From sequence record OR427838.1: DNA of 64,000 nt, one strand, 5' to 3'. The notes beneath the pieces were generated by a model. It was given only the letters and a program-made list of their open reading frames with translations, was not told the origin of the DNA and ran no database searches. Made by a program: the position numbers and the translations under genes. This document shows positions 5,407-40,071 of the stretch, in pieces; the stretch's first letter is position 1; each line of letters opens with the position of its first letter. The DNA comes from Escherichia phage fDHCT2.

Positions 5407-5474
5407 AATAATTTCCTCAGTTTAAAATTTATAATCCATGGGACCATTATACTCGGGTCCCAAGAGTTTGTAAA

Positions 5475-6544: not shown

Positions 6545-6573
6545 AATGTTCTCCTCATGTGTTGATAGGATAG

Positions 6574-6602
6574 ACTATAACACGTGAGGAGAGGAAGTAA
6601 AC
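6574..6602 (-). promoter_or_regulatory. T4-type early sigma70 promoter
   Basis: minus-strand GTTTAC-17nt-TATAGT with TGn; -10 flanked by inverted repeat ctcctcacgtgt/acacatgaggag that includes the SD. Confidence 0.55.
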
Positions 6603-7531: not shown

Positions 7532-8005
7532 TCATTTAAGCGATTTCCTCAGTTGTTTTTTAAATGAATCGACCATTTGTTTCTTTGTGTCAGATTCATT
7601 ATAAGTCATTCCATGTGAAAGCATTTCAGCAATCATTTCTTCCTTACCTAATCTACTGAACTCTTTGGTTTTATCAGGAACGAAATTAGGATGGATATTG
7701 TTTTCAGTGTAATCAGATTTCAGATAGACCAGCAAATTCTCTAACCATTCGAGGTAGTCAACGTTTTGACCTTTAAGACCAGAACGGTTGAACTTATGCT
7801 TCATTTGTCCTTCTGCAGCATTGCACAGGTTACATAGTAAACCACGAACCTTACCGGCTTTCGGCCCATTCAATTCATGGTCGTGGTCAAGGTGGTTACT
7901 TTGAACATCAGGGTTTAATTCACGTTTACAAATCAAACACTTACCATGTTGTACATCATAAAGTTTTTGTTTTTCTTCTTTGTATAGTTTGCCAGTCAAC
8001 AACAT
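7532..8005 (-). CDS. 49: Endonuclease VII (Holliday-junction resolvase) gp49
   Basis: 157 aa; MLLTGKLYKEEKQKLYD...HLDHDHELNGPKAGKVRGLLCNLCN matches T4 gp49 from memory. Confidence 0.9.
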   Translation of the reverse strand: MLLTGKLYKEEKQKLYDVQHGKCLICKRELNPDVQSNHLDHDHELNGPKAGKVRGLLCNLCNAAEGQMKHKFNRSGLKGQNVDYLEWLENLLVYLKSDYTENNIHPNFVPDKTKEFSRLGKEEMIAEMLSHGMTYNESDTKKQMVDSFKKQLRKSLK

Positions 8006-8134
8006 AATAAACCCTTACCATTATTAGATAAGGGTATTTATTAATATCCTAATAGTTTAGCAGTGCAACTTAGCACTAACAACAATCCGAATAAAACGAC
8101 TCCGACCCAAAATACCGTAATAAGATCATCCATA

Positions 8135-8311
8135 TCAGACCCCGTAGAACGAGCGATGTAACCGTTTAAATTGACGAATCATCTTTTTGGTAGGACGGGT
8201 GTATAACCCTACACAGGTGGCCATAAACTGGTCAGTAGGACTTCCTTTGATAAGAAGTTTCCAGACCTTGTCACCATTTAACTTTTCAGTATAGACTAAT
8301 ACAGTTTTCAT
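8135..8311 (-). CDS. small hypothetical protein (58 aa)
   Basis: ATG ORF below the 60-aa track cutoff, in an otherwise unannotated 600-bp stretch. Confidence 0.3.
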   Translation of the reverse strand: MKTVLVYTEKLNGDKVWKLLIKGSPTDQFMATCVGLYTRPTKKMIRQFKRLHRSFYGV

Positions 8312-12816: not shown

Positions 12817-13341
12817 TTATGCGAGAACCGTCTTTAAACGCTCTTCAAATTTCTGAAGCAGAGCTTGGCGTTCAGCTCGTTGTGATTTGTACTGCTCGAT
12901 ACGACCTGAAGTGAGGGCGTACTGTTCGTTTACTGATTCCCGCATGAATTCAGGAATCTCTTTACAAGCTTTGATTTCGTCAAACTTATCAATAACAGCT
13001 TGTTGTTCAGCAATCAGATTATCGAAATAAGCGATATCAGATTTAACGTTTGCCAGGTCGGATTCAGTAGGCATTAAACGTTTGTTACGTTCAGCTTGAT
13101 AAGCTTGATTGTTTTCACGACTCCAGTGAAGAGTACGTTTTTTGTTAGTGTTTTTATAGAGCTCTACAATACCAACTGAATCGATGACTGCAATCCAGTT
13201 CCAATGGCTTTTGTAAATCTCTCCTCCAGATACGGTAATCTCATTACCACAAGCAACATCGTTAAAGAACTTGCTTTGTTTTTCAGATTTGAAATTACCG
13301 TTGTTGAAATTAATCAGTGAAAAAATATCTTTAGCGTTCAT
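12817..13341 (-). CDS. hypothetical protein (174 aa)
   Basis: ORF directly downstream of an early promoter. Confidence 0.55.
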   Translation of the reverse strand: MNAKDIFSLINFNNGNFKSEKQSKFFNDVACGNEITVSGGEIYKSHWNWIAVIDSVGIVELYKNTNKKRTLHWSRENNQAYQAERNKRLMPTESDLANVKSDIAYFDNLIAEQQAVIDKFDEIKACKEIPEFMRESVNEQYALTSGRIEQYKSQRAERQALLQKFEERLKTVLA

Positions 13342-13367
13342 GATAACCTCCAGTAGTTGATAGGTCT

Positions 13368-13396
13368 ATAGTATCATTTCTACTGGAGATGTAAAC
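13368..13396 (-). promoter_or_regulatory. T4-type early sigma70 promoter
   Basis: GTTTAC-17nt-TACTAT with TGa; inverted repeat ctccagtag/ctactggag flanks -10 and includes the SD. Confidence 0.6.
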
Positions 13397-14731: not shown

Positions 14732-14768
14732 TATATTCTCCGTTTCACTCAGTAGATTTGATAGGTCC

Positions 14769-14797
14769 ATAATAACATGCTCTACGAGGTTGTAAAC
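14769..14797 (-). promoter_or_regulatory. T4-type early sigma70 promoter
   Basis: GTTTAC-17nt-TATTAT with TGt. Confidence 0.55.
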
Positions 14798-14813: not shown

Positions 14814-14839
14814 CCCAAAAAAGGACCCCGAAGGGTCCT
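14814..14839 (-). terminator. rho-independent terminator
   Basis: minus-strand aggacccttcggggtcct hairpin + TTTTTT. Confidence 0.6.
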
Positions 14840-17764: not shown

Positions 17765-18001
17765 TCACCAGTATTTGTTGATAGTAGAAATTAATTCTTG
17801 GGCTTGGGTGGTTTTCAGTTTACATCCACAACCCTTTAATGTGTCTTTAAGGAGCCACGGTTCCTTGAGCTCGCCCTTTTCTAGACGAATTCTGTATCCT
17901 CGATAATCAGCGAAGATACTTCGGTCGTCGAATATCTTAATCTCAAGGATACGACCGTTGATTTCATATTCTAATGAAACCGTAGTACTTGTAAGTTTCA
18001 C
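17765..18001 (-). CDS. hypothetical protein
   Basis: 78-aa ORF; first codon appears to be GTG. Confidence 0.45.
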   Translation of the reverse strand: MKLTSTTVSLEYEINGRILEIKIFDDRSIFADYRGYRIRLEKGELKEPWLLKDTLKGCGCKLKTTQAQELISTINKYW

Positions 18002-18065: not shown

Positions 18066-18093
18066 CGAAAAAAGGTCCCACCGAAGTGAGACC
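18066..18093 (-). terminator. rho-independent terminator
   Basis: minus-strand ggtctcac-TTCG-gtgggacc hairpin + TTTTTT. Confidence 0.65.
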
Positions 18094-18098
18094 TTTGA

Positions 18099-21473: not shown

Positions 21474-21932
21474 TTAAAGATAGATTACTTTCGTGCTGGT
21501 TTTACCTTCTAAACGTTTAGAGTTAACAAATGCCATACGACATTTTAATGAATATCCTTTATCAGGATGTTTACGATCTACGGTCATACCTAGCCATAAG
21601 GTTTTATCGGTAATTTCGAGACGCAATGGACGATACACTTTACCAGGGACAATTTCGGATTCTACATCAGGCAGAGGTTCCTGGATTAAGAATTCATGGA
21701 TTTCTTTAACATGGTTATGGAGTTGCTTGAATAAAGCAAAAACGTATTTTTCGTCGATTTCACGTTGGATAGCACGGTCCAACAAGTGATTAGAGTACTT
21801 AATAAAGAAAGCTGGGACACCGCTCTTGATGGCGGCTTTTTTGATGGACGCGTTAAGTTCACGAAATTCGGTTTCGAACTGACGACGTAATTTGTTGCGG
21901 CGGATGAATACTTCTGAATTAATTTCTGACAT
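21474..21932 (-). CDS. regB: Endoribonuclease RegB
   Basis: EVFIRRNKLRRQFETEFRELN...HLLDRAIQREIDEKYVF...RLEITD matches T4 RegB from memory; start at MSEIN (track ORF begins 53 codons upstream). Confidence 0.85.
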   Translation of the reverse strand: MSEINSEVFIRRNKLRRQFETEFRELNASIKKAAIKSGVPAFFIKYSNHLLDRAIQREIDEKYVFALFKQLHNHVKEIHEFLIQEPLPDVESEIVPGKVYRPLRLEITDKTLWLGMTVDRKHPDKGYSLKCRMAFVNSKRLEGKTSTKVIYL

Positions 21933-21960
21933 TTTGTAATCTCCTGTAGTTGATAGGTTT

Positions 21961-21989
21961 ATAGTATCATGTCTACAGGAGATGTAAAC
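21961..21989 (-). promoter_or_regulatory. T4-type early sigma70 promoter
   Basis: GTTTAC-17nt-TACTAT with TGa; inverted repeat ctcctgtag/ctacaggag flanks -10 and includes the regB SD. Confidence 0.6.
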
Positions 21990-21993
21990 AGCT

Positions 21994-22272
21994 TTAGTAC
22001 TTTTCTTCCGGTTGGAACACGGAACGACAAGCCCACATACTAGCTTCTTTAAGACGGTCAATTGCATTACGAATCTGGGTAATGCGTTCATGAGCCTGGT
22101 CTAGTTCTTGTTCAGAAACCTCTTCGGTATCTAAGTTCATATAATAGGTAACATGTTCTTCTTCTAGAGCTTTAAACATCAGCCCTAACCGAACTTCAGC
22201 ATCTTTAATGGCATTCACTTTACCGATTTTATCGTCGGTATGTGGCTTGTAACCTTTGATATCTTCAATCAT
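21994..22272 (-). CDS. hypothetical protein
   Basis: 92-aa ORF. Confidence 0.45.
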   Translation of the reverse strand: MIEDIKGYKPHTDDKIGKVNAIKDAEVRLGLMFKALEEEHVTYYMNLDTEEVSEQELDQAHERITQIRNAIDRLKEASMWACRSVFQPEEKY

Positions 22273-24219: not shown

Positions 24220-24248
24220 TTTAGTGTTCTCCGTGTTTGTATGAGAAC

Positions 24249-24277
24249 ACTATATCACAGCTATCGTAAAAGTAAAC
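24249..24277 (-). promoter_or_regulatory. T4-type early sigma70 promoter
   Basis: GTTTAC-17nt-TATAGT with TGa; leader hairpin gtgttctc/gagaacac covers the SD. Confidence 0.55.
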
Positions 24278-25306: not shown

Positions 25307-25795
25307 TTATCTATAAGCAGCCCAAGTACCTGTTTTAAATGTTGAAATCACGCGCTTAGCACGATTAGGAGTTTGTTTATACCAACGGGATTGAGCCAGG
25401 TTAACTGCGGCATCATCCCAACGTTTCTGTTGGAGCATACGCAGAGAGTTGGTAAATCCTGCTACACCAGCTTCGCCCATTTGGAAGACCATGTTAATTA
25501 AAGCACAACGACGAACTTCGTCCAGCACATCATAAACAGGTTTCAATTTAGGATTACGCAGAATAGCTCTACGAGCATTATCAACCGACCGGTTAAAGAG
25601 TTGTTCTGCTTCAGCCATAGTAATACGACCATTACAAACTCGACCCATAAGCTTATCAAGTTCAGCGCGGGCAACATCTTTAGATGGGTTCTTGGTAACT
25701 AACTGGCCAATACCAATAGTCCAATAACCTTCAGTGTCTTTATAAAGATTTAAATCAAGACCTTCGTCTTGACGTAACATATCAAAAATATCCAT
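25307..25795 (-). CDS. e: Endolysin (T4 lysozyme)
   Basis: 162 aa; [35 protein letters not shown]...[18 protein letters not shown] matches T4 lysozyme. Confidence 0.95.
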
Positions 25796-25797
25796 AA

Positions 25798-25825
25798 TAC
25801 CTCCTGAGTATAGGAGGTATTTATA
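25798..25825 (-). promoter_or_regulatory. gene e late promoter (TATAAATA) abutting an SD-sequestering hairpin
   Basis: minus-strand TATAAATAcctccTATACTCAggaggta tt ATG; perfect 7-bp stem containing the SD. Confidence 0.7.
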
Positions 25826-26504: not shown

Positions 26505-27094
26505 TTACGGCATTCCTTAATAAACTCATTTAAATTATGTTTGTTTTTACCTTCGTCGTAAAGACGTTGTTGACGACGTAAACGCCATGGCATTTCAATA
26601 GCCAAGCACCAAATACTTAAAGCAGCGCCAGCTGTGAAAAGATTCATTAATCCGGCGCCAATAATAGTTCGTTCTAGCGCATCATTCCAGTTAGCATCGA
26701 TTAAAAATGAACTCAACACTAACATTGGAAGTAAAGTAATAAAATACGCTACAACATATCGTCCGAACGTAAGCCATTCAGTATCGATGAGCTTAGCCTT
26801 TCCATCTTGGAGACAAATATACTTATCGTCAGTGCGGGTGATTTTCTTTACCGGTTGCCAACCATTTACGATATAACCCATTCTGAACTCCTCAATTAAA
26901 AGCTGTTTCATTTCGGCAGTACAACCTGACCAATCTATTGTACTGGCTGAAATTCCTTCATCACCGTCATCGATATTTCGCCAGGACTTTTTAATAATCA
27001 TAGTCTCACCACTTGGGATAATAATTCCGGCATTTTCCGACCGACGGATGAAGTTTGTATCAATACCCATACAACCAGGTTCATAAAGGGCCAT
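26501..27094 (-). CDS. membrane protein
   Basis: 197 aa with C-terminal TM helices. Confidence 0.5.
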   Translation of the reverse strand: MALYEPGCMGIDTNFIRRSENAGIIIPSGETMIIKKSWRNIDDGDEGISASTIDWSGCTAEMKQLLIEEFRMGYIVNGWQPVKKITRTDDKYICLQDGKAKLIDTEWLTFGRYVVAYFITLLPMLVLSSFLIDANWNDALERTIIGAGLMNLFTAGAALSIWCLAIEMPWRLRRQQRLYDEGKNKHNLNEFIKECRK

Positions 27095-27780
27095 TACCAG
27101 CCCTCCATAGGAAATTCCAGATATACTTGAGCATTAACGCGGATTTCATTTGTAATCTTTTTAACACGGTCGGTATTACGAGACACACGACCAAACCAGC
27201 GCCACCCGTTACTTACTGCACGAGAACCTGTATGCCATGTTTGCCAATCAAACTGGAGTAACGTGCGGTCAGGAGCATCCCACTTGGTTAATTCATTGGA
27301 CTCAATTTTTTCCAGAACTTCTTTATGCCACTGGCGATAGATAAGTTCGCCTTCAGGAATCTGACTGAACTGTGCAGTTCCGGTTGCAAAATGAGTAGGA
27401 CACACATCAGCATTAACAAGACCAAGAATATGTTCAGAATGGTATCGAGGATTATCATAATCAGGTTGCCCTGCGGTAATAAAGTGTTGACCCACCGGAA
27501 TATCTGGACGTGGTACATCATCATGGTGGAAGCCTGGAATTGCAGGGTACCAGCCGGGCATTAACATGTGTACACGGGAATCAAATACGCATTCAACGGC
27601 TTTCCACTCATCAGGGAGATTAGTAATAAAGCTACGAGTAATAGGACCACCATTTTGTGCAGCAAAATTCAAATCACAGTTAAAGAACATAGGCTCGTTT
27701 TTAATATCATCATTAGAAATATGACCTGCAAAACCACCTACTGCACGAGCTTTAGAATTAAAAGTTTTTGGACCGTTCAT
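27094..27780 (-). CDS. hypothetical protein (228 aa, His/Asp-rich)
   Basis: long ORF; HHDD and HSEH motifs suggest possible metal-dependent enzyme. Confidence 0.5.
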   Translation of the reverse strand: MNGPKTFNSKARAVGGFAGHISNDDIKNEPMFFNCDLNFAAQNGGPITRSFITNLPDEWKAVECVFDSRVHMLMPGWYPAIPGFHHDDVPRPDIPVGQHFITAGQPDYDNPRYHSEHILGLVNADVCPTHFATGTAQFSQIPEGELIYRQWHKEVLEKIESNELTKWDAPDRTLLQFDWQTWHTGSRAVSNGWRWFGRVSRNTDRVKKITNEIRVNAQVYLEFPMEGW

Positions 27781-28007: not shown

Positions 28008-28044
28008 TTTATTCTCCATTTCACTCTGTTGTTTTGATAGGTCT

Positions 28045-28072
28045 ATAGTATCACACCTATAGACCTTGTACA
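28045..28072 (-). promoter_or_regulatory. T4-type early sigma70 promoter (variant -35 GTGTAC)
   Basis: GTGTAC-17nt-TACTAT; palindrome aggtctatag/ctatagacct overlaps -10. Confidence 0.45.
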
Positions 28073-32892: not shown

Positions 32893-32935
32893 AGTATTTC
32901 CTTCAGTTGGTTAACGTTTTGTAATCCATGAGGAC

Positions 32936-32965
32936 ATTATACCCTGTCCTCTGAGGGATGTAAAC
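32936..32965 (-). promoter_or_regulatory. T4-type early sigma70 promoter
   Basis: GTTTAC-17nt-TATAAT; gaggac/gtcctc inverted repeat flanks -10. Confidence 0.55.
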
Positions 32966-33366: not shown

Positions 33367-33391
33367 TATGATCTCCTCAAATTATGGGCTC

Positions 33392-33421
33392 ATAATATCT
33401 TAATCATGGGCCCATGTAAAC
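33392..33421 (-). promoter_or_regulatory. T4-type early sigma70 promoter
   Basis: GTTTAC-18nt-TATTAT; atgggc/gcccat inverted repeat flanks -10. Confidence 0.5.
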
Positions 33422-34836: not shown

Positions 34837-34911
34837 TGGTATCCCGCCCTGGGATCGAACCAGGACCGCAAACTTAGAAGGATCGTATGCTATCCATTAC
34901 ACCAGCGGGAC
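34837..34911 (-). tRNA. tRNA-Arg (anticodon UCU)
   Basis: hand-folded cloverleaf: acceptor gtcccgc/gcgggat, anticodon loop cuUCUaa, T-arm cctgg-TTCGATC-ccagg, encoded CCA. Confidence 0.7.
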
Positions 34912-34916
34912 ATAGT

Positions 34917-34993
34917 TGGTGACCCGGACCAGATTTGAACTGGTAACCTTTCCCTTATGAGGGGACTGCTGCTAACCATTGAGCTACAGGGCC
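34917..34993 (-). tRNA. tRNA with CAU anticodon (Ile2-lysidine type or Met)
   Basis: resembles E. coli tRNA-Ile2: anticodon loop cuCAUaa, T-arm accag-TTCAAAT-ctggt, encoded CCA; acceptor stem has one mismatch. Confidence 0.6.
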
Positions 34994-36299: not shown

Positions 36300-36338
36300 C
36301 ATTTTATTCTCCAATCACTCATTTGTTTTGATAGGGCT

Positions 36339-36368
36339 ATAGTATCACCACTAAAGCCCGTTGTAAAC
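36339..36368 (-). promoter_or_regulatory. T4-type early sigma70 promoter
   Basis: GTTTAC-18nt-TACTAT with TGa. Confidence 0.5.
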
Positions 36369-39579: not shown

Positions 39580-40025
39580 CCTTTCCATCCTAATTTTTTC
39601 AGTGAATGTTCGGTAATCAATCTAAAGGTGATACCCATTTTATCTGCTGTAGCTTTAGCTGCTTTCCACTTATCAGTATTAACAGACCAAGTATAGTGTT
39701 CGTTGATATATCTCTTTTTAGCAGCCGTAGTCATTTTAACAGGCACCGCAGGAGCATGGGTTTCTTTAAAAGGTTTGACTTCAAAAAAGAATTGTTGGCC
39801 TGTATCAAATTTAACCCAGAAGTCCATAAAATATCGTCTTTTCTTTCCTTCAGCATTGCAAAAGTAAGGAATGACCACCTCTTCTGAATTCCACTGGACT
39901 ACATTAGGATGGTTGTCAAGCCAACGCATAAACCATGCTTCCCAAGAGGAACGATATTGGATTTTCTTCCAATCACCTTTATATTTTTGTAAGTTTGTAG
40001 GTTTAAATTTCCCTGAGTAAGCCAT
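39576..40025 (-). CDS. 4: Head completion protein gp4
   Basis: 149 aa, position and size as T4 gp4; divergent from gene 53. Confidence 0.85.
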
Positions 40026-40036
40026 AGTTGCCTCCT

Positions 40037-40044
40037 TATAAATA
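40037..40044 (+). promoter_or_regulatory. late promoter TATAAATA for gene 53
   Basis: exact TATAAATA ~30 nt upstream of gp53 ATG. Confidence 0.6.
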
Positions 40045-40051
40045 TTAATAT

Positions 40052-40059
40052 TATTTATA
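40052..40059 (-). promoter_or_regulatory. late promoter TATAAATA for genes 4-2-3
   Basis: exact TATAAATA on minus strand upstream of gp4 start; forms a palindrome with the plus-strand box. Confidence 0.6.
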
Positions 40060-40071
40060 CTCGGAGGCCCT

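Follow-up and report, generated by a model that had tools for sequence, protein, structure and literature searches.

Early promoters embedded in predicted Shine–Dalgarno-masking RNA hairpins in a T4-type phage

Escherichia phage fDHCT2 (sequence record OR427838.1) carries, in the 64,000-nucleotide stretch analysed here (the window), four early promoters that lie within inverted repeats. They serve regB, denV and homologues of nrdC.8 (ATG 13341) and 55.6 (ATG 6544), and in each case the downstream arm of the repeat covers the Shine–Dalgarno (SD) sequence of the gene served. The pairing occurs in excess over chance, covaries, is conserved in T4 and sets long and short RNAs apart thermodynamically. 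We consider it likely, if far from assured, that these repeats are promoter-embedded RNA hairpins that mask the SD and act as translational insulators.

In the mechanism we propose, the 5′ arm would lie upstream of the gene's own start site, in the −35/−10 spacer or, for denV, across the −10 box, and the 3′ arm would be the SD region of the gene served by the embedded promoter. RNA from that promoter, predicted to start about 5 nt before the 3′ arm, would form no hairpin and would be translated. RNA from promoters further upstream would carry both arms, fold once the 3′ arm emerges and hide GGAG from the 30S subunit. In read-through RNA this site would be closed to RNase RegB too, since RegB requires a single-stranded GGAG; the enzyme is inhibited by secondary structure, and sixteen structured GGAG sites of T4 are resistant to it (PMC1702504). 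RegB, DenV and the other products would be made from their own early promoters only, in the first minutes of infection, with read-through RNA silent for that cistron. T4 early promoters shut off 2-3 minutes after infection (PMC3014915).

Folding of the cassettes and accessibility of the SD

A 4-kb segment around the regB site matches JS10, IME281 and further JS98-like T4-type phages at 92-94% identity, and on sequence the source phage groups as a JS98/JS10-like T4-type phage of the genus Dhakavirus. By the JS10 annotation the window falls in the early hyperplastic region, with minus-strand transcription throughout, and its genes run from 46/47/55 through nrdC, tk, vs, regB, denV, e and tRNAs to 57B/1/3/2/4. 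A promoter scan of the minus strand returned about 16 early promoters of the GTTTAC type. All have the form GTTTAC-N17/18-TAnnnT, many with an extended −10 TG; the 20 nt on their 5′ side are AT-rich by inspection, and an SD and start codon close the 3′ end of each promoter cassette.

The regB promoter matches the T4 early consensus in its GTTTAC hexamer and extended −10 (PMC1524935). Its two arms, ATCTCCTGTAG and CTACAGGAGAT, form a stem of 11 bp, and the 60-nt segment that contains them folds at −18.9 kcal/mol (z −6.4), a stability equalled by none of 200 shuffles. Because the 5′ arm sits in the −35/−10 spacer, transcripts from the regB promoter would lack it; start sites here and below are predicted from the promoter consensus. 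The open reading frame (ORF) upstream of regB ends with a stop codon at 21994-21996, 4 nt ahead of the −35 hexamer. The RegB protein of the window and that of JS98-like phages are 98-100% identical, and JS10 annotates the region as regB. The regB cassette as a whole (21939-21989) is near-identical to the denV cassette of T4 (65355-65413 of the T4 record) and to that of JS10.

The same arrangement is found at ATG 13341, where the hairpin folds at −18.3 kcal/mol (z −3.6) and the cassette differs from that of regB by a compensatory change of T:A to A:T, and at ATG 6544 (−21.1 kcal/mol, z −6.1). An original prediction, made from the letters of this DNA, had proposed an inverted repeat straddling the −10 box at these three sites, and the arms map as proposed (Table 1). 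Its fourth example, ATG 14731, is not borne out: the repeat there is bulged and ends 6 nt upstream of the SD, and its fold is no better than shuffles (z +0.42). The denV promoter (ATG 24219), absent from that prediction, is an SD-masking case with shifted geometry, its 61-nt segment folding at −13.8 kcal/mol (z −2.7).

SD accessibility was taken as the free-energy cost of freeing the SD core from its pairs in a constrained ensemble; the unpaired probability averaged over a 10-nt stretch at the SD was too coarse and was replaced by these opening energies. Read-through RNA was modelled from 60 nt upstream of the −35 box to +35, and promoter-proximal RNA from the predicted start, the seventh nucleotide after the −10 box. 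At regB, opening the SD costs 11.3 kcal/mol in read-through RNA and 4.2 kcal/mol in promoter-proximal RNA. The corresponding values are 15.3 and 2.3 kcal/mol at ATG 13341, 13.6 and 2.3 kcal/mol at ATG 6544, and 9.5 and 1.7 kcal/mol at denV. The difference between the two RNAs (ddG), 7-13 kcal/mol over the four sites, is of the same size as that of gene e in the window; this homologue of the T4 gene with the proven mechanism served as a positive control and requires 13.0 kcal/mol in the long RNA and 3.7 kcal/mol in the RNA from its late promoter. T4 gives the same picture, with 12.3 versus 2.7 kcal/mol at regB, 10.9 versus 1.7 kcal/mol at denV and 15.4 versus 3.1 kcal/mol at nrdC.8.

Nine other promoters of the window show differences of −1.6 to +1.2 kcal/mol. 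They are those of ATG 14731 (2.2 kcal/mol read-through, 2.1 kcal/mol proximal), 18001, 33688, 10780 and 23760, together with four stems that pair the spacer with the −10 region (the −10 type described below), for which ddG is about zero; the stem at 28039 lies outside that set. The original prediction had called for the folding of read-through and proximal leaders to be compared, and at regB, 13341 and 6544 the SD is indeed the costlier to open in read-through RNA. Its proposal that read-through RNA masks the SD and proximal RNA frees it agrees with the energies at all four sites (9.5-15.3 versus 1.7-4.2 kcal/mol), and with the covariation and T4 conservation given below; the functional part, an effect on translation, is what we infer from them.

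Ranking genes by the SD opening cost of the long RNA brings out the same sites. Among 77 minus-strand genes of the window the median cost is 3.0 kcal/mol, and the top eight are 13341 (rank 1), 6544 (rank 2), the junction at 27094, e, gene 4, gene 49, regB and denV. At seven of these eight a promoter lies between the arms or on the 5′ arm (four early, three late). The same ranking of 71 annotated T4 genes (40-80 kb) puts nrdC.8, regB, e, I-TevII, denV, segB, e.8, rI, 4 and 49 in the first ten places; among these, e, I-TevII, segB and 49 are known cases or published predictions.

Excess over chance, covariation and occurrence in T4

Promoters from the window, JS10, T4 and 60 IMG/VR loci with the promoter core were reduced to 55 non-redundant promoter-leader units. 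In thirteen of the 55 the spacer forms a helix of score at least 9 with the stretch that runs from the −10 box to the ATG; the number expected is 0.44 when spacers are shuffled and 0.94 when they are swapped onto the leaders of other promoters. Two groups of helix occur in the 55 units, an SD type whose 3′ arm is the SD (9 units) and a −10 type in which the spacer pairs with the −10 box and discriminator and the entire hairpin stays upstream of the start site (11 units).

Thirteen cassettes could be aligned in register. Double changes are present in 5 of their 11 outer pairs, a result matched by none of 500 shuffles, and slid registers give essentially zero covariation. The variable part of the helix occurs as TG/CA, AG/CT, AT/AT, TCATG/CATGA and TCTGG/CCAGA. 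Inside helices of score at least 9 there are nine G-U pairs versus two A-C (one-sided p = 0.03). Allowing G-U is what brings six helices to that length, whereas allowing A-C does so for one. G-U is thus kept and A-C is not, which favours pairing in sense-strand RNA over pairing in DNA or antisense RNA.

T4 has stable hairpins at the corresponding genes: −23.1 kcal/mol (z −5.4) for the regB arms TTTTCCTCTTGACTG/CAGTTAAGAGGAGAA, −19.4 kcal/mol (z −4.4) for the nrdC.8 arms GTTCCTCTGTGG/CTACGGAGGAAC and −18.0 kcal/mol (z −4.3) for denV. A further lineage (that of L077) has the arms TTTCTCCTCTTTATG/CATAAAGAGGAGAAA. Orthologous promoters therefore retain pairing despite unrelated arm sequences. At denV the leader ...GGAGAACACTAAAATG is common to T4 and the window, and is paired in T4 by the spacer, TCTCCTGTAG, and in the window by AGTGTTCTC from the −10 region.

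Over 32 promoter-gene pairs covering all early regions of T4, ddG is bimodal, ten pairs reaching at least 5.7 kcal/mol and the other 22 staying at or below 2.3 kcal/mol. The upper set comprises the ndd.4 region, nrdC.8, alt.-3, modB, regB, 30.8, denV, motB.2, alc and e.8. With shuffled spacers 8.5% reach a ddG of at least 5 kcal/mol, so that 2.7 are expected versus ten seen (p = 2e-4). In the window 4 of 16 promoters mask the SD versus 1.3 expected from shuffled spacers; with the SD type at four of about 16 early promoters, the use of the device at early genes had been overstated as systematic. Pairing of spacer with SD is predicted in T4 at modB, alc, motB.2, alt.-3 and 30.8, with ddG of 6.7-12.3 kcal/mol.

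A broader reading is more tentative. Spacers at about a quarter to a third of early promoters in T4-type phages may have evolved to pair with their own SD, giving a layer of translational insulation in which proteins come only from their own immediate-early RNA, and read-through RNA is silent and shielded from RegB. If so, the T4 set would include regB, modB, alc, denV, motB.2, alt.-3, 30.8 and nrdC.8, and the T4 early programme would contain a post-transcriptional rule by which RNase RegB, the ADP-ribosyltransferase ModB and the transcription inhibitor Alc are made from own-promoter RNA only. The rule would contribute, in a way so far unrecognised, to the abrupt early end of synthesis of specific proteins while RNA still crosses their genes. 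The cassettes would be self-contained and movable between loci without disturbing their neighbours, and a promoter nested in the hairpin that masks its own ribosome-binding site would offer a compact insulation design for synthetic operons.

Known systems and competing explanations

Promoters inside SD-masking hairpins are known from the T4 genes e, soc, 49 and I-TevI (Uzan and Miller 2010, PMC3014915), and for I-TevII/III, segB and mobE such masking with an internal promoter has been suggested; the promoters involved are in every case late or middle ones (PMC3014915). The predicted cassettes of the window resemble these: the 5′ arm precedes the proximal start, in the window a start predicted from promoter geometry, the 3′ arm is the SD or AUG, and the predicted energy contrast is of similar size. 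Long transcripts of the T4 genes are silent and proximal ones active, and genes e and 49 of the window carry this known form. The promoters differ. Theirs are late, of the form TATAAATA, gp55-dependent and separate early from late expression, whereas the SD-type cassettes of the window have an early sigma-70 promoter, draw the 5′ arm from its spacer and would set own-promoter RNA apart from RNA that reads through, during the early period or just after it. Indeed, no TATAAATA is present between the arms of the four early cassettes, whose internal promoters are GTTTAC/TAnnnT. What the window cassettes would bring together is the logic of gene e and an early sigma-70 promoter with a spacer that gives the 5′ arm. 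No description of an early-promoter version with an SD arm was found in the accessible literature, where a search for papers on denV/ipIII stem-loops likewise gave nothing, though older subscription-era T4 papers may contain one. Valerie and colleagues are reported to have noted possible stem-loops before ipIII, ipII, denV and tk in 1986, with no function assigned.

Cassettes related to these have been described in T4-type phages as promoter-early stem-loops (PeSLs; Arbiol et al. 2010, PMC2839356; Comeau et al. 2014, PMC4122927), publications likewise absent from the original prediction. They were read as terminators or attenuators and as recombination linkers, and JS98 is mentioned with PeSL-like sequences (PMC2839356, PMC4122927). 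The window cassettes share with PeSLs a strong sigma-70-type early promoter (its activity predicted in the window), an AT-rich upstream region and a stem-loop in or over the promoter, followed by an SD and start codon; as with PeSLs, the cassette is repeated in hyperplastic early regions before different genes in related phages. Published PeSL stems lie in the −35/−10 interval, over either box, just 5′ of the −35 box or from the −10 box to the start. All five positions are upstream of the start site and none has an SD arm, and the papers mention neither translation nor sequestration (0 occurrences each). The −10-type stems of the window are ordinary PeSL members. The SD-type stems, with the 5′ arm in the spacer and the 3′ arm past the start site, fall outside the five subclasses, and SD masking would give PeSL stem-loops a role beyond termination. 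The denV promoter of the window is unlike that of JS10 despite about 94% genome identity, and such shuffling of cassettes is consistent with the recombination proposed for PeSLs.

The published reading, in which the stem stops or weakens upstream transcription and overlaps the SD incidentally, is in our judgement an unlikely one here. An RB49/phi1 stem-loop did lower lacZ as rrnB T1 does (PMC2839356), and the −10-type stems are unable to act on the SD. An intrinsic terminator is found within 60 nt upstream of 0 of 20 stem-bearing promoters versus 13 of 35 stemless ones (Fisher p = 0.002, the 13 terminators being about seven distinct sequences). Stems without upstream terminators are expected if the stems handle read-through, and a terminator role fits this mutual exclusion equally well; the same lack of terminators is our ground for predicting read-through RNA at these promoters. 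Intrinsic terminators also occupy the same place relative to the next promoter. The stems differ from them in having no U tract and long loops: a terminator scan of the window picked up the true terminators at 18071-18096 and 14822-14839 and flagged no promoter stem, no stem is followed by a U tract, the tails are A-rich, and the loops of the SD type, at 23 nt or more, are atypical. On these grounds the stems were rejected as intrinsic terminators. Nor does termination account for a 3′ arm that always covers GGAG, or for two unrelated denV 5′ arms directed at one SD. Termination and masking might, speculatively, be reconciled through Rho-dependent polarity on an untranslated leader.

Two intrinsic terminators with UUCG-type loops and U tracts stand on the minus strand at 18071-18096 and 14822-14839. 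They directly precede the promoters of ATG 18001 and ATG 14731, both of which have stems that appear decayed.

Translational coupling, in which the SD stays shut until the ribosome that ends the upstream ORF opens the hairpin, seems to us less likely again. The four good cassettes adjoin the stop codon of an upstream ORF, which ends 0-5 nt before the −35 box, so a terminating ribosome would stand near the base of the stem; the base pairs to be opened are those of the SD, and the window has a classical coupling hairpin at the 27094 start. The 5′ arm, however, begins 8-10 nt after the upstream stop (28 nt for denV), which would place it level with the front of a ribosome on the stop codon, or past it. 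In none of the four window cases is it part of the upstream ORF, and upstream ribosomes would therefore not melt it. Coupling designs usually carry the 5′ arm inside the upstream coding sequence. In coupling of the MS2 coat/replicase type, the downstream SD is closed by an upstream segment of the polycistronic RNA; the SD is closed alike in the window cassettes, but their upstream segment is outside the ORF and a promoter lies between the arms.

We regard as improbable, a shade more so than coupling, an element that works in DNA without any RNA role, as recombination homology patches or structures or as a palindromic protein site. PeSL mini-circles have been shown in RB49/phi1 (PMC2839356), and the cassette that stands before regB in the window is found before denV in T4 and JS10. 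JS10 also has a hybrid with mismatched arms: at its nrdC.8 promoter a 5′ arm ...ATTAG faces a 3′ arm CTACT... and one pair is mismatched. Cassettes have probably recombined with one another, which is compatible with an RNA role. Recombination requires direct homology between cassettes, not complementarity inside one, whereas the compensatory changes keep pairing and not sequence; a G-U pair would be a G-T mismatch in a DNA hairpin, and the wobble bias is strand-specific. A protein site would fix the sequence of the arms, and those of T4 regB, T4 nrdC.8 and the L077 lineage are unrelated. Very improbable, finally, is a hairpin whose primary purpose is to protect the GGAG of read-through RNA from RegB and so stabilize long transcripts for downstream genes: all SD arms do contain GGAG or GGAGG, but shielding is compatible with translational masking and inseparable from it by sequence, and the GGAG of T4 denV is poorly cut even when unstructured, as it lacks an A-rich tail (PMC1702504).

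Several points weigh against SD-masking hairpins as translational insulators. Every step beyond the folding of the RNA is one that we infer, and S1, ribosome standby or co-transcriptional ribosome loading could overcome a stem of 10-15 bp, the energies being equilibrium predictions that ignore S1, standby binding and kinetics. The RB49/phi1 PeSL stem-loop cuts expression of a downstream reporter as strongly as a strong terminator (PMC2839356). Stems that spare the SD are about as common as those that cover it (11 of 55 versus 9 of 55 units), so SD masking is not the sole role of promoter-embedded stems. Masking varies among regB orthologues: three lineages have it in strong form, two in weak form (3.9-6.6 kcal/mol), and one (L068-70), with a −10-type stem only, lacks it. 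The rows of the covariation alignment were selected as pairing sequences, which makes the percentage paired circular; the unbiased test is the helix count over 55 units. The shuffled-spacer null, at 8.5%, is not negligible because spacers are pyrimidine-rich. Last, the cassettes are paralogous, linked by descent and by copying, and the counts and the Fisher test overstate independence.

Other stems, neighbouring features and the shared core

Features of the window and of the T4 record are collected in Table 1. The cassette at ATG 14731 is probably a decayed one. The stems at 18001 and 33688 fold no more stably than shuffles at a significant level and show no difference between long and short RNA. 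All three were rejected as SD-masking cassettes, their folds being at shuffle level and their SDs opening alike in long and short RNAs.

Table 1. Promoter-embedded hairpins and related features, in window coordinates unless the T4 record is named (MFE, minimum free energy)
Feature	Position	Strand	Detail
regB promoter-leader	21930-21989	-	GTTTAC-a-TCTCCTGTAG-acatga-TACTAT-aaacctatcaa-CTACAGGAGA-ttacaaa-ATG
regB early promoter, −35 hexamer GTTTAC	21984-21989	-	matches T4 early consensus; 17-nt spacer, then TACTAT
regB 5′ arm ATCTCCTGTAG	21973-21983	-	in −35/−10 spacer; pairs with 21939-21949 in MFE and centroid folds
regB extended −10 (TGa) and TACTAT	21961-21969	-	in hairpin loop; TG flagged by promoter scan
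regB 3′ arm CTACAGGAGAT with SD GGAG	21939-21949	-	from about +6 of predicted transcript to 6 nt 5′ of ATG
regB start codon	21930-21932	-	ORF from ATG 21932 down to 21474
nrdC.8 homologue cassette, ATG 13341	13346-13396	-	−35 at 13391-13396; −10 at 13368-13373
13341 5′ arm ATCTCCAGTAG	13380-13390	-	
13341 3′ arm CTACTGGAGGT	13346-13356	-	
55.6 homologue cassette, ATG 6544, nrdH/55.6 interval	6550-6602	-	−35 at 6597-6602; −10 TATAGT at 6574-6579
6544 5′ arm CTCTCCTCACGTGT	6580-6593	-	one mismatch between arms
6544 3′ arm ACACATGAGGAGA	6550-6562	-	
denV cassette, ATG 24219	24223-24277	-	shifted geometry; −35 at 24272-24277; −10 TATAGT at 24249-24254
denV 5′ arm AGTGTTCTC	24243-24251	-	overlaps −10; ends about at expected transcription start
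denV 3′ arm GAGAACACT	24223-24231	-	overlaps SD
ATG 14731 repeat, bulged	14748-14797	-	CTCGTAGA 14781-14788 / TCTACTGAG 14748-14756; SD GGAG at 14738-14741, outside repeat
−10-type stem	28039-28066	-	spacer AGGTCTATAG pairs with CTATAGACCT (−10 and discriminator)
Further −10-type stems	36334-36359, 33384-33415, 32930-32951, 5439-5462	-	
gene e hairpin (positive control)	25789-25825	-	late promoter TATAAATA 25818-25825 overlaps 5′ arm ATACCTCCT 25812-25820
gene e 3′ arm AGGAGGTAT	25797-25805	-	is the SD
gene 49 hairpin, embedded late promoter (positive control)	8003-8043	-	ACCCTTA/TAAGGGT; −14.1 kcal/mol, z −3.9
gene 4 (head completion)	40023-40068	-	TATAAATA 40052-40059 between GCCTCC 40063-40068 and GGAGGC 40030-40035 (SD)
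modB promoter, T4 record	13130-13186		
alc promoter, T4 record	136278-136336		
motB.2 promoter, T4 record	8161-8218		
alt.-3 promoter, T4 record	123032-123093		
30.8 promoter, T4 record	130253-130310		

The −10-type hairpin at 28039-28066 lies wholly upstream of the start site and leaves the SD untouched. Those at 5439-5462 and 32930-32951 (minus strand) belong to paralogous cassettes with a common downstream ATGGATTA; a stem of 6-7 bp around TATAAT is kept between them through three compensatory double changes (TGGGACC/GGTCCCA versus GAGGAC/GTCCTC).

Gene 4 has an e-type design outside the classical list of e, soc, 49 and I-TevI. Its hairpin folds at −20.6 kcal/mol (z −4.2) and its SD requires 12.9 kcal/mol to open; gene 4 of T4 is weaker (7.6). 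At 27080-27110 (minus strand) the gene start at 27094 overlaps the upstream stop (TAATG), and a 12-bp hairpin, with its 3′ arm within the gene's own coding sequence, takes in both SD and AUG. With an SD opening cost of 14.4 kcal/mol, this looks like a classical translational-coupling junction.

The early promoters also share a core, TGATACTATA(G/A)ACCTATCAA, for which the original prediction had considered protein binding. It does recur, with seven copies in the window at three mismatches or fewer versus 0.01 expected, and it is the promoter itself: extended −10 TGn, −10 hexamer, discriminator and start-site region. Its quasi-palindrome TGATA/TATCA is invariant in the aligned cassettes and so provides no test of pairing. 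TATCAAC is present also at promoters without TGATA or with other −10 contexts, T4 included. A protein-binding palindrome was rejected on these two observations and on the outer arms, which keep complementarity and not sequence.

Rfam covariance models run over the whole window reached the gathering score at two tRNAs only, and at 21850-22050 gave no credible match even at E up to 10; membership of the promoter stems in a known Rfam cis-regulatory family was rejected, as no family matches. [quoted passage not shown] The two minus-strand tRNAs, Arg-TCT and Met-CAT, lie at 34837-34993, where JS10 has three (Arg, Asn and Met).

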